Shown here piece by piece: positions 22,501 through 28,500 of a stretch of 64,000 nucleotides of DNA. The stretch lies in the NCBI GenBank assembly GCA_051294375.1, contig CM119266.1:21891875-21955874 (forward strand). Direction: 5' to 3'. A program made the position numbers and the translations under genes. The notes below the pieces were generated by a model. That model did no database searches and was not told where the DNA came from. It was given only the letters and a program-made list of their open reading frames with translations. Each line of letters opens with the position of its first letter. Position 1 is the first letter of the stretch. This DNA is from Paraspadella gotoi (lineage: Eukaryota; Animalia; Chaetognatha).

Positions 22501-25500
22501 ATCAATTACTATTACATCAATCAATCAATTATAATTACACTAGTCAATAAATTATTATTATTATTATTATTATTATTTTTTTTTTCTTCATAGTTTCAAC
22601 GGTTGCGGTCAAATTTGTGTGTCGCCTGCGCGCGACGGCTCTTCGCCGACCAACGCCTACACCACGGCGTCGCCAGTGACGCCCGTTTGGACGCGCCGCC
22701 CGCGCAAATGCCCGACCGTGATGGCAGGAGTCGAATGCGCTGACGGCCCGCTCGTCACGTGCACGGGAGACGCAGACTGCGGAGGAGAATTCAGGTGATG
22801 ACCTTTTGTTTCAAATAAAACAAACGCGACGCTTAACCTCCTCTGTACATGTAAACATTTATTCGGAATATACTACTTTCAATAATCAATATCCCGTACG
22901 GTACAATACGTCAATAATTAGACTTCGCTTGGAATGGAAAAAACGAAAATGTATTAACAAAAAAATGAGAAGCTGACACAAAGTTGTAAAGTGACATTTA
23001 AATACAATTGTTAAAATTATACGACAAAATGACGATGGTATTTTGAATTTTTTTTATTTTTTCTGAAAGAGAGAGAGAGAAAGAGAAAGAGGGAGAAACG
23101 GAATAATCTATAAGTCCGATTCTGCGGGTTTGGTGATTTTGATCATTTATATGCCTGTTTTTTTTTTGTTTTTTTTTTTTAAATCACGTCATAAGTATTC
23201 ACGCAGTAAACTTTGAAGGTATTATTTATTCCTGTTTCTTCGCATTTAAAGATTCTTCCATCGACAAAATGAAGAAATATTTTGTAATCTTCGTCTTATT
23301 GTTTCACTTTTCTCTAACTGTATCAACCACGTGTCGAATCATTTGTTGGTTTCAAGAAAGAGAAAGGGACCACTTGCTACATTTCGTTTGCAATTGGCGT
23401 GGTGTCAAGGGTCAGTCTCCCATACCAGGATGCACGACCCTCACCCGCGAGATCATGTCGACCGCCACGACTTCCAACGAAAAATGCCCTTATCTCAAGG
23501 AATGCTTTCGGTCGAGTTACGACACCACAAATTGGATGATCATGCTCAACAACCTCGGCGTCTCGAGGCTCGATGAAGACTTTTTACACGATTTTCCTGA
23601 TCTTCGGAAAATATTTATCGTCAACAACCGGATGCGTGCGGTAGGAGTCGGGACTTTCAGACATTCAAACCTTACCCACTTGGCTTTGCCCTTTAACCAA
23701 ATATTGGGGGTGACAAGTCAATTTTCCAATCTGACGAATCTTCGGACTCTCGATCTTAGAATGAATCGAATCTCGTTCATATCTAAAGATGCTTTTCGCG
23801 GATTGCCCAGGCTAATTAGACTAGACCTGAACGGGAACAGATTACAACAGTCAGAGTTTCTTCTCCAGTTGTCCAGGTCTCTTTTGCGAAATCTTCAATT
23901 AGAGTTTGACGAAAGCTTCTCGCCGTCATTAGAGGATTTTCCAGTTCTAAATGACTTGGTGAGGACTAACATGGTATTTAACAAAAAGACACGTCTCACA
24001 TCTATCCCAGGACGTCTCCATAATCTTAGATTTGTATACATTTCTGGCGTGAGTGAACTGAAGGATAATTTTTTTTCTAATATGCAGCACTTATCATCCC
24101 TAAATATGATAAATGGAAACTTAACAATTATTAGCAATCGATTACTGCGGAACATGAAGTTTTTGTATAATTTGACCTTTAATAACTTCGAAATACAGTA
24201 CATTGAAAAAAACTCGTTTCTGTCCAGCACACACTTATTAAGCTTGGATCTTTCTCAAAATAAAATCCAAAAACTCAATTCATCCACGTTTGAGTATTTA
24301 CATCGTTTACTTTTTTTGGATTTAGCAAACAATTGTATTGAAAAAATAGAAGAAGGAACATTTTCTTCTTTGGATAACCTTAAAATTTTGAATTTGCAGT
24401 CTAACAGATTACGCCAGATAAAAAGTTCAGTTTTTAGTTCCTTAAAAAACCTGTCAATGCTCATTCTTAAGAGTAATGAACTTATTGCACTGGAAATACC
24501 TTCTTTTATCCCTCTGACAAAATTAAATTTGGACAATAACTCTTTTGCAGAAATACCCTCGAAGTTAATGCAAAATTTAACAAGATTGATTTCATTATCA
24601 ATCAATTTTAATCCACTTGTTCGAATTCCGCAAGATTCTTTCAAATATTCTCAGGTCACGGATATAACCTTCGGGTGTTGCTCCGAATATGTTAGAGGAA
24701 AGCGTTCCGAAAATTGCCATAATACAATCATGATTATTGAAAAATCTGCCTTGGATTTGTTAGACTTGGATAAAGAACCAAGAGTTTTAAAGAGATTATT
24801 AATTTTAGGCTGTGCAGCGCCTTTTTTAGAGAAAACGTCGATGAATGTCAATTTTTTGATTGCTCATTGGAATAATTGGGAAGATTGCTTTGAAAACTTG
24901 GAAATAGTTTGCTTACATAATACTGGAACTTTTCTCCTTCAAGACAACGGAATAAAAAGTATTAAAATGAACCAATTTCGGACAATTTATAAAGCAAACG
25001 TTATTGATTTATCATATAATCAAATCACCGTTATTTCTCCTTCCGCATTTAGTCTAAGTTATATTGCGTCGCTCATACTAAATGGTAATAAACTATCTCA
25101 TCTTTCCTTAGACATTAAACCATTCCCAAACATGGTCATTTCCGCAGTAAATTCAACTATAAAAATGCTTAATTTAACTACACATAATAAATATTCAAAC
25201 AAATTTTATATCTCGTTAGACTTTGGTCACAATCAAATCACCGATTTGAGTAATGTAACCTTAAATGGCTTTAAATACGCGAAGTTAATTTTACTGAATA
25301 ATAATCGTATTACTACGTTTCCCTCAACTTCCTGGCTCTACGATCTTCAATTAATAGAAAGAATCGATTTATCTTTCAATTTATTAAAAACTTTACCACC
25401 AATAATCAAGTCTTTAAGAGTTGGAAGAATTAATTTTACTCATAATGAGTGGGATTGTAAAAAATGCAGTAATGTATACATTCTTTCATATGTTTCGCTG

Positions 25501-28500
25501 CATTTGGCAACGACGGAAATGAGATGTTTTTTAAATTCTTCATTGTTTTCAACTTATCAAATTTGTATGATAGAACATTGTTATATTCCATATGGTGTCA
25601 TTATTTTGTTTAGTACGATGTTACTAACAAAATCTTTTCATTCCTTGAACATAATAAGATTGAAAAAAAAATTTTCTTACCAGACGATTTCAATACAAAA
25701 CTGCGGGAGATCTTATTTTATCAATTCTTCGTATATTCATAGTCAAGTGAACCATGAGAATATTTTGTTTCTACACACATTTGCCACAGAAATATTTTTT
25801 CATAAAGGGATTAGAGGTTATTTATTTTTAGAAAAATCAGATTGTAGTCTTCAAGAAGCTTTACAAATGAATAGTATCGAATACTCAACGATAAACTCTG
25901 TAAAACTCTGCTATCAGTTTTTAAGAGGTTTAGAGCATTTACATTCACTTATACCTCCAGTTTTTCATTTAGGATTATCATTAGAAAGTATTTTCTTGGC
26001 TGGCACGCCTACAAAGTGGACACTAAAGATTGGCGACTTTTCTTTTGCAAAAACCAACGTCATTTCTGTCAACGACCGAGAAAATTATCGCCGTTATGAC
26101 CTTAAATGTGCAGCCGATCTGATTCTTCAAATTAAACCAACTGAGTCCATTGAATTTGAAGTACTTTCTCTGGCATTAAGGGAAGGATTAACTCCTTTGG
26201 ATGCACTGCAATCACCAGCTTTCATGCCAATTAGTGAAAGAGTTATTATGATTAACGAATTGAATGAACTGCTTAAGAATTATGGACCAAAACAAAAGAA
26301 CAATTTGGGTCAGGATATGATTGAAAAAAATTCCACTCTCGTGATTGGCGATGAGGGTGGATGGCATCGATGTATCAATACTGAATTACTGTATGTTTTT
26401 GGTTCTCGATTTTCCGGTTATCGTGTAACCAAATGCGCGGATTTGATAAGATTCGTTAGAAACCTCTTAGCACATGGAGTAGAAGAACCAAGGGCGATGT
26501 TGAGCACTTTTGAGACTGCTGATCCAACGTGTGAAAATATTTTTGACTATTTTTCAAAAAAGTTCCCGTTTTTTTTTCTTCACATGTTTTACGTGTACAA
26601 GAAAATGACGCAACCATTGCAATGTTCTAAGGATCTGTTTTTAAAAGAATATTTGAACTATGAAAACGTTGCCAACGCCAGAAAAAAGAAAGAGGGCTCC
26701 TGGAAACCATTGCTGACAAAAAGCAAAATTCGAGTTGAGTTTTTGTTTTTCGATTCCGAAAAGCAAAGCTTCGTTTCAAAGCCTAAAGTTCTCAAATTCT
26801 TCGAAGGAGAGCCGAGGACCAAAGTGGACGGGAGAGACGTCGCCAAACAAATCATTGAAGACATCAATCGCTTTTGGCCCGGTCTTTCGCTCTGTAACAT
26901 CATGGCCAAAACCGAGCAAGGCCACAATATTCTCGAAGCCGTAACGGAGGATGACGCGAGCCCGAGCACATCCGATCCAACGGGAGCCAGAAAGAATTGG
27001 CCAATTTTAGAAGGTTCGATTGTCGAGGTGTCGAGAATGCAGTGTATTGTTCAGTCGGTAGAGAAGTTTTTTGACGAGAAGATTACGTTTCTGTTGGATT
27101 TCAACAAAACCACCAACGTCAAAGCTTTGAGAGGAAATTTTATAAAGCACTTGCCCAAGAATAAAAGGAATCGAATTCGTATGGAGAAATTACGCGTTTA
27201 TCTCAATGGAAATATCCTTCATAACAAACAAAACATTCTTAAATTGGACTTTGCCAAATACCCATTCATGGTGGAAGTTTTAGATTGAATCGTCGCCGAA
27301 TTCAAAATTGTAAAACGATTTTGATTTACGATTTTTAAAAAAAAATTTCTTATCTAAATAATAGCTTTGGTGAAAGTTGCCTTAAACTTACTCTCTTACC
27401 AATGACATGGTCATTGGTTAAAACTTTCGGGAAAAGTTTGTCATTCAGCCAATTTTAAATATCAATTAATAAAAACTTTTTTGAGTTGTATAAAGTAATC
27501 ATTTTAGCTTTTTTGTTCTAAAATGATGTACTTTTTTTGAATTTAGATTCAATTATAATTGTGGCTTAAACACGAAATTTTTTTTATTGTAAATGTAAAT
27601 GAAGAAAATTAACAAAGAGAAATACTTTTTACTGAAAAAAAAGTGAAGGTAAATCATGACAAAAAATTGACTAGCAAGTAGCAACGATACTTCAACTGTA
27701 AGTTATAGCAATTTTAAACAGTTTAGCCTAGATTTTACTCTATATGGAATCCTGTTGTTTTTCCTGACCAGCTTTGTTTTTTCTTGAAAATAAAATAAAT
27801 CTAAACAAAAGAAAATAAACAAAAACCAAAAACAAGGGAGTAGAAAACGGAAAACGACGACGAATTGAGGAGGAGAAAAAATCACTTTTTTACAATATTA
27901 AACTTGAATCCGGCATTAAAAGTACATTGACGCCTTCAATGTACTTTTTTCAATGTACTTTTTTCAAGCTTCTCGATAAAAAAAAACCAGACAAAACGAA
28001 ACCGAATTGAGGCTACCTTTCTGTTTTTCAGATGTTGTTTCGACGGATGTGGTTATTCGTGTCGAGCGGAAGGCGATTCGGTCATCTCTTCCGGCGGCGC
28101 CAGTCACGGTTGGAATCACAACAACAACAACAACGGCGGGTGGGATATGCATAACAACGGTGGCACCATCAACGGAGTAATCGCACCGGATAATCTCATT
28201 TCAAAACCCGGAATTTGTCCAGCTGGTAAACAGTTTGATATTGAAAAAGTAATTATATTTGTATGAAGTTGGTACAACCAATATAAAAAATACCCATTCA
28301 TTTAATAAATAAGCTATCTTGCCCCTGACTTCGGACAGGCTTACATCATTCTTACAAGATAATGTTATAATGTTATACCAATTTCGTATAGATTATAATA
28401 CATAACATACAAAATCTATATATTTCGACTGACCTTTCTGTTTCGGATTAACGCTGAATACATTAGTTTATTTTTCTTCTTAAGTCGCCCTCAACGCTGG

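Follow-up and report, generated by a model that had tools for sequence, protein, structure and literature searches.

In animals, the leucine-rich repeat (LRR) receptors of the cell surface are known to signal through TIR, and the KEN ribonucleases to act either in endoplasmic reticulum (ER) stress, as does IRE1, or in response to 2′,5′-oligoadenylate (2-5A), as does RNase L; the ectodomains of Toll-like receptors (TLRs) pair upon ligand. Activation by pairing of the kinase–KEN modules is described as established for both IRE1 (PMC7914947) and RNase L (PMC4730318), RNase L proper being reported as confined to jawed vertebrates (PMC10400998). Within the 64,000 nucleotides of the chaetognath Paraspadella gotoi analysed here (GenBank assembly GCA_051294375.1, contig CM119266.1, positions 21,891,875 to 21,955,874 of the forward strand; hereafter the window) there is a single-exon open reading frame (ORF) whose product combines in one chain an LRR ectodomain, a predicted transmembrane (TM) helix, a pseudokinase and a KEN ribonuclease domain followed by a ubiquitin-like (UBL) region. 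This LRR–TM–pseudokinase–KEN architecture is real and conserved, and it appears to be undescribed. The features of the ORF, in window coordinates, are as follows.

23269..27288, + strand: ORF of 1339 amino acids (aa) in a single exon, signal peptide–LRR–LRRCT–TM–pseudokinase–KEN–UBL region (4020 bases without stop or frameshift; Pfam)
23269..23334, + strand: predicted signal peptide, aa 1-22 (hydropathy)
23536..25440, + strand: LRR ectodomain, aa ~90-724 (Pfam LRR_8, PDB sequence matches)
25441..25581, + strand: LRRCT-like cysteine cap, aa 725-771 (C730, C733, C753, C766, C771)
25582..25671, + strand: predicted helix, transmembrane and juxtamembrane, aa ~772-801 (model, hydropathy, relatives)
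25675..26223, + strand: shortened pseudokinase, aa ~803-985 (Pfam Pkinase, alignment, model, Foldseek)
26224..26643, + strand: KEN ribonuclease domain, aa ~986-1125 (Y1051, R1061, R1064, N1065, H1069)
26722..27036, + strand: first post-KEN domain, aa ~1152-1256 (model secondary structure)
27040..27285, + strand: C-terminal ubiquitin-like domain, aa ~1258-1339 (Pfam, family profile, model)

A sequence-only reading of this DNA had placed an uninterrupted ORF of 1339 aa at 23269-27288 and had read in it the order LRR, cap, TM, pseudokinase and KEN; both the frame and the architecture are confirmed, the latter being conserved in diverged relatives, and the positions given for the cap motif (725), Y1051, R1064, N1065, H1069 and DYFSKKFP (1093) are right. 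Its estimate of about 20 LRRs is a fair one, and the signal peptide that it proposed is likewise predicted here. What it overlooked are the C-terminal ubiquitin-like region, the loss of the kinase Gly loop and the nesting of the ORF in the intron of a host gene.

In the cytosolic half of the protein, Pfam Ribonuc_2-5A matches aa 1016-1114, C-terminal to the kinase fold, at 4.1e-11 (43.5 bits vs a cut-off of 23.3) and the best PDB match is yeast Ire1 (2rio, 4.8e-7), in agreement with the KEN signature recognized earlier from the letters. Y1051, R1064, N1065 and H1069 align with the catalytic residues of IRE1, where the general acid is Y892, whose effect is 10-fold, the essential general base is H910 and the phosphate is contacted by R905/N906 (PMC9472280). 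Among the 23 rows that cover the motif, of the 36 family rows in the alignment, the His is kept in 23/23, the Arg and the Asn in 22/23 each and the upstream Arg in 21, the single exception to R-N-x3-H being a fragment that begins at the motif; the upstream Tyr is present in 14 rows and replaced by His in five and by Gln in one, three rows having no coverage there. Judged from this alignment, the KEN catalytic residues are kept. P0004, P0005, P0015, P0040 and P0050 constitute a subclade in which His takes the place of the general-acid Tyr. As to the “RNase L/IRE1-type” character first ascribed to the module, the family profile matches human IRE1 (3p23) at 4e-5 and RNase L only weakly (0.53), so that, of the two, IRE1 is the closer to this effector by sequence.

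The kinase fold preceding the KEN domain is both shortened and degenerate. Pfam Pkinase is matched at aa 815-929 (1.5e-6) with 28.2 bits, under the 31.7 cut-off, so that of the two Pfam families expected in this part of the protein Ribonuc_2-5A passes its threshold and Pkinase does not. HRD is replaced by HLG (900-902), the catalytic-loop Asn by Ser and DFG by DFS (923-925), and both the alignment and the structural model lack a Gly loop and an activation segment; the HRD is lost in all the family rows covering that site. Foldseek comparison with a viral library returned generic kinases at 10–20% identity, and the ESM Atlas matches are generic kinase or LRR-kinase clusters only.

The search for the same architecture elsewhere, in which aa 789-1339 were run with HMMER against 1.84 billion representatives, yielded 80 matches at E 0.001, of which 30, plus 9 further proteins, were scanned with Pfam. 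Two relatives, P0002 (1393 aa; 29% identity over 1402 columns, 1e-149) and P0004 (1457 aa; 24% over 1464 columns, 3e-58), are collinear with the query over its full length and contain LRR, Pkinase and Ribonuc_2-5A. The fragments P0003 and P0059 start in the last part of the LRR array and run through the shared cap and a hydrophobic helix into the pseudokinase, P0003 extending to an intact KEN, while most of the remaining close matches are C-terminal fragments. The five LRR-TM members are 22–34% identical where aligned; the LRR–pseudokinase–KEN layout is thus conserved in diverged relatives. P0003, P0006 and P0059 carry internal repeats of the pseudokinase and decayed KEN-like segments ahead of the intact KEN. 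P0087, a cluster mate of P0007 with 1599 aa, has an N-terminal ubiquitin-like stretch, LRRs, Roc, two hydrophobic helices and kinase–KEN–UBL; as read from its sequence it is a Roco–KEN fusion in which the same effector cassette is mounted on a Roco-type sensor. P0084, a cluster mate of both P0087 and P0007, ends before the kinase.

A midpoint-rooted tree was computed for 38 KEN regions, none of them from RNase L, after removal of four near-duplicates. In it the family groups with two active-kinase proteins in a clade of 23 rows (100/99) that is distinct from the IRE1-like rows; the support is only 80/82 for an inner group of 21 rows and 98/93 for the query with P0002. The two active-kinase proteins, P0024 and P0063, are kinase–KEN proteins that keep the HRD and branch beside the family, whose active-kinase ancestor they may resemble. 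Short pseudokinase–KEN proteins with degenerate kinase motifs (P0044, P0049, P0052, P0053, P0058, P0060 and P0067) make up a separate set on the IRE1 side of the tree. No family member was found by the scan in viral contigs, metagenomes or prokaryote genomes, and a viral origin is rejected for want of a relative in the scanned viral contigs. A prokaryotic origin is rejected as well: of the 28 loci picked up by a motif scan, 6 from species genomes and 22 from metagenomes, none matches the family profile and three match only the kinase part of a wider profile, and P0059, filed in a Bacteroidota metagenome-assembled genome on a 2-kb contig, is read as likely host DNA in the bin. Word-index homology searches, which are weak by design and also missed P0002 and P0004, found nothing.

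In the outer half, the signal peptide is predicted from aa 4-22, the most hydrophobic 19-mer of the protein, with a hydropathy (KD) of 1.79, and the N-terminus of P0004 is likewise hydrophobic. Pfam LRR_8 is matched at 6.4e-47 in seven stretches, 12 LRR cores being recognized by a strict motif and 21 by a relaxed one, and the top PDB sequence matches of the ectodomain are IGFALS (7.8e-37), TLR13 (4.1e-32), LRRC15, LRIG1 and TLR3. The cap begins with N-x-[WF]-x-C-x-x-C in 5/5 LRR-TM members, its region (aa 725-775) having a pLDDT below 50 in the model.

The TM segment proposed from the letters is weak in its own sequence and is upheld mainly by the relatives and by the helix of the model. Its KD of 1.47 (aa 768-786) is lower than that of an LRR stretch (aa 586-604) and marginal when taken alone, but the helix has a KD of 1.93–2.51 in four relatives and a positive-inside bias is seen in 5/5 LRR-TM members, with 5–9 K/R in the 20 residues after the helix and 0–1 before it. 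N-glycosylation sequons number 13 before and 3 after the TM in the query, and 13 before and 2–4 after the helix in 3/3 full-length members. The model of aa 725-1339, built on a 49-sequence alignment (pLDDT 89.2, pTM 0.83; pLDDT 31 for a single-sequence fold prediction), has a helix at aa 776-801 followed immediately by one strand and the alphaC helix, so that the kinase N-lobe would begin at the membrane, without its first two strands and Gly loop. The idea that the “TM” consists of kinase strands 1-2 is rejected, given the clear hydrophobicity of this segment in the relatives and its helical form in the model. A single TM helix between sensor and kinase, weak here and clear in four relatives, is accordingly predicted.

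Downstream of the KEN there is one ubiquitin-like domain and probably also a second. The C-terminal one (aa ~1258-1339) matches Pfam Rad60-SLD_2 at 0.0016 and ubiquitin at 0.026, a faint SUMO-like match appears at aa 1277-1326 in the Pfam scan of the full protein, and the family profile matches the UBL of RAD23B at 1.6e-4. The domain before it (aa ~1152-1256) has no Pfam match; in the model it displays a beta-grasp-like order strand–strand–helix–strand with a loop insert, and is only tentatively considered ubiquitin-like. A tandem duplication as the source of the two domains finds no support, the profile match between them not being significant (probability 1.4%). Throughout the family, the UBL region is retained.

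When compared with the known systems, the ORF protein falls outside IRE1, RNase L and the TLRs alike, its architecture being a variation on the receptor–ribonuclease kind typified by IRE1. With IRE1/ERN1 (2rio, 3p23), its best sequence match, it shares the single-pass type I layout with an outer sensor, a kinase fold and a KEN RNase, and the catalytic Y, R, N and H in the same register; it differs in having an LRR ectodomain instead of the IRE1 luminal domain, a dead kinase (HLG, DFS) without Gly loop or activation segment, nearly no linker after the TM, a hydrophobic residue at the K907 position, a ubiquitin-like tail and a KEN that falls in a separate clade. It resembles RNase L in joining a repeat sensor to a pseudokinase and a KEN, and by this analogy is likely to be a dimer-activated defence RNase, but it is predicted to be membrane-anchored, shows no ankyrin family in the Pfam scan, and matches RNase L weakly in sequence. 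A signal peptide, about 20 LRRs, a cysteine cap and a single TM are found in TLR3 and TLR13 as well, the difference being that an enzyme effector in its own chain takes the place of TIR: no TIR domain is matched by Pfam at E 0.1 and the model contains kinase, KEN and UBL folds, so that the earlier designation “Toll-like” holds for the ectodomain only. Finally, plant LRR receptor-like kinases have the same order LRR–TM–kinase fold, from which the present protein departs by its animal-type LRRs and cap, its dead IRE1-derived kinase and its predicted RNase output.

As regards the literature, the KEN fusions on record are with kinase, ankyrin, CCCH, ubiquitin and BRCT, an LRR fusion being recorded only for another HEPN family, DZIP3; going by the list of fusions in that source, KEN with ubiquitin is known and KEN with LRR-TM is absent (PMC3710099). 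RNase-domain proteins have been sorted into ten clades in a study whose running text makes no mention of LRR or transmembrane, its Fig. 2 architectures and its supplement, which may bear on the novelty, lying outside that text (PMC10400998). Ribonuc_2-5A is listed among the extra domains of plant receptor-like kinases and is not linked to LRRs in the passages covered, which do not include the tables (PMC7333395). A full-text literature search, whose coverage leaves out most subscription journals, found no paper on the LRR–TM–pseudokinase–KEN architecture, as the sequence-only reading had supposed, and 0 papers in which PF06479 occurs together with “leucine-rich repeat”.

The ORF lies, on the same strand, within an intron of a multi-WAP gene, the features of which are as follows.

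22593..22794, + strand: host WAP exon upstream of the intron
22795..28031, + strand: host intron enclosing the entire ORF (GT..AG joint in the RNA-like data set X7, depth 25.8, side 33)
28032..28225, + strand: host WAP exon downstream of the intron
27014..28031, + strand: alternative intron running from a donor at codon 1249 of the ORF to the acceptor of the host (a single X7 contig, GT..AG, depth 9.6)

The host frame joined computationally across 22795-28031 continues a WAP domain. The host gene (~12700-41230, + strand) comprises numerous WAP four-disulfide exons together with immunoglobulin domains, antistasin-like repeats and six repeats of thyroglobulin type 1, the WAP and antistasin assignments being made by eye, and its product is likely to be a secreted multi-domain protease inhibitor. 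Exons of these kinds mark the window as eukaryotic and as likely to come from an invertebrate. The G+C content at third codon positions (GC3) is 0.37 in the nested ORF vs 0.54–0.77 across seven host exons, which fits a separate entry of the gene into the intron. A misassembly of the LRR and KEN halves, which would have undone the earlier reading, is rejected on the strength of the collinear relatives and of single contigs across the ORF: one 5252-bp contig spans 23187-28275 with 0 differences in each of X1 and X4, two data sets that possibly represent the source sample and hence are not independent. Pieces from X5, X6, X7 and X9 fall in both halves of the ORF, again with 0 differences except for one base in one X5 contig. 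No close paralog of the ORF was found at 80% DNA identity among the X1/X4 contigs. Elsewhere in the window, a very high-copy short interspersed repeat occurs at ~21227-21383 and ~28290-28390 (summed contig depth >10,000), and exons resembling a PLAT domain and ankyrin repeats, judged by eye, lie at ~60100-62950 (+ strand).

Evidence on transcription comes from X7, a data set guessed to be RNA and containing spliced host joints; X8 yields the same contigs and the two are counted as one RNA data set. X7 has no cover at ~24862-25816, and that no X7 contig bridges the LRR and KEN parts is indecisive either way. The contig joining 27013 to 28032 has a short side of 28 letters, below the 31-letter bar, but two X7 ORF contigs end or start at the 27013 branch point and, taken together, these data make transcription of the 3′ part of the ORF likely. 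The splice 27014-28031 is out of frame with the host and would cut the protein to 1297 aa, the last UBL being lost; this form could be regulatory or decay-bound.

The explanation that we prefer, with a rough probability of 0.55, is that the ORF encodes a ligand-gated single-pass receptor RNase, most likely of innate defence. The LRR ectodomain would likely bind a foreign ligand and pair two copies of the receptor, the pairing bringing the inner pseudokinase–KEN modules together to cleave RNA directly. The TM helix may pass its geometry straight to the pseudokinase and thereby replace the switch played by phosphorylation and nucleotide in IRE1 and by 2-5A in RNase L; the pseudokinase, having no ATP-binding loop, may act as a rigid spacer and dimer surface, probably binding no ATP. 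RNA would be degraded broadly, not spliced in the manner of XBP1, and the ubiquitin-like tail may link the receptor to turnover or to partners. That the role is immune is considered likeliest on account of the type of ectodomain, the divergence of the members (22–34% identity) and the swapping of the sensor (P0087).

Several observations weigh against this explanation. The protein that heads the LRR matches has no role as an immune receptor, and LRR scores tell little of function; the TM helix, with a KD of 1.47, is weaker than those of the other four members and includes polar residues; the lysine found in IRE1 two residues after the catalytic Arg (the K907 position) is replaced by a hydrophobic residue throughout the family, as it is in the RNase L motif quoted by the sequence-only reading; and with both its N-lobe and its C-lobe shortened, the kinase may lack some of the surface through which IRE1 pairs back to back. 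Furthermore, the RNA support for the ORF comes from one data set with ORF pieces at depth 2–10 in which a host intronic piece is also found, at depth 7.8, so that the ORF pieces alone do not establish a separate transcript, and the best-covered RNA form splices out ahead of the last domain.

The same receptor–RNase wiring could serve a ligand of the animal's own, namely a secreted protein, the matrix or an ER/lysosomal cue, the output being regulated mRNA decay in development or stress, similar to the regulated IRE1-dependent decay (RIDD) of mRNAs. The top ectodomain matches do include IGFALS, LRRC15, LRIG1, LGR4/5 and LRRC32, all of which bind endogenous partners, the effector resembles IRE1 (4e-5) more than it does RNase L (0.53), and the failure to find a close paralog in the X1/X4 contigs goes in the same direction. 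However, the very low identity of the members, the internal duplications (P0003, P0006, P0059) and the Roco sensor swap (P0087) fit conflict genes, and KEN/HEPN expansions have been tied to defence (PMC3710099), so that an endogenous ligand is regarded as rather unlikely. Lower still is the likelihood that RNA or partners are bound by the KEN domain, or that it is active without ligand gating, the signal passing through a scaffold made up of the pseudokinase and the ubiquitin-like domains. The loss of the Gly loop and activation segment, which takes away the known switches of IRE1, the non-conservation of the K907 position and the retention of the UBL region would suit such a scaffold, but R, N and H are nearly invariant amid 22–34% overall identity, as is typical of a conserved active site, and these residues are reported as required for KEN activity (PMC3710099). 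That the family is real and this copy a decaying or mis-spliced passenger of the host intron yielding little full-length receptor is the least probable of all since, in spite of the weak TM, a mid-ORF GC3 of 0.25–0.35 vs 0.54–0.77 in the host exons and a spliced form that is deeper than the unspliced 3′ end (9.6 vs 5.9) and whose stop lies upstream of further introns, the frame runs for 4020 bases without stop or frameshift, every catalytic residue is kept, the pieces listed from other samples differ from it by one base at most and the fold is confident.

If the ORF product is indeed a ligand-gated receptor RNase of defence, pathogens could be sensed in extracellular or endosomal space and answered by RNA destruction without an adaptor, a second messenger or a transcription step. 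A receptor joining LRR and KEN would provide a direct route from an outside ligand to RNA cleavage. Broader, and somewhat short of an even chance in our estimate, is the proposition that the members make up an undescribed animal family of one-protein immune receptors having a TLR-like ectodomain and a nucleotide-independent pseudokinase–KEN, the cassette being swapped onto LRR-TM and Roco sensors much like the bacterial sensor–HEPN systems. A receptor that joins LRR and KEN would also be an invertebrate counterpart of the RNase L-type defence that needs no OAS, and two questions become testable now: whether the geometry of a TM helix alone can switch a KEN RNase without nucleotide binding, and whether invertebrates lacking RNase L use sensor–KEN fusions for antiviral or antimicrobial RNA decay.

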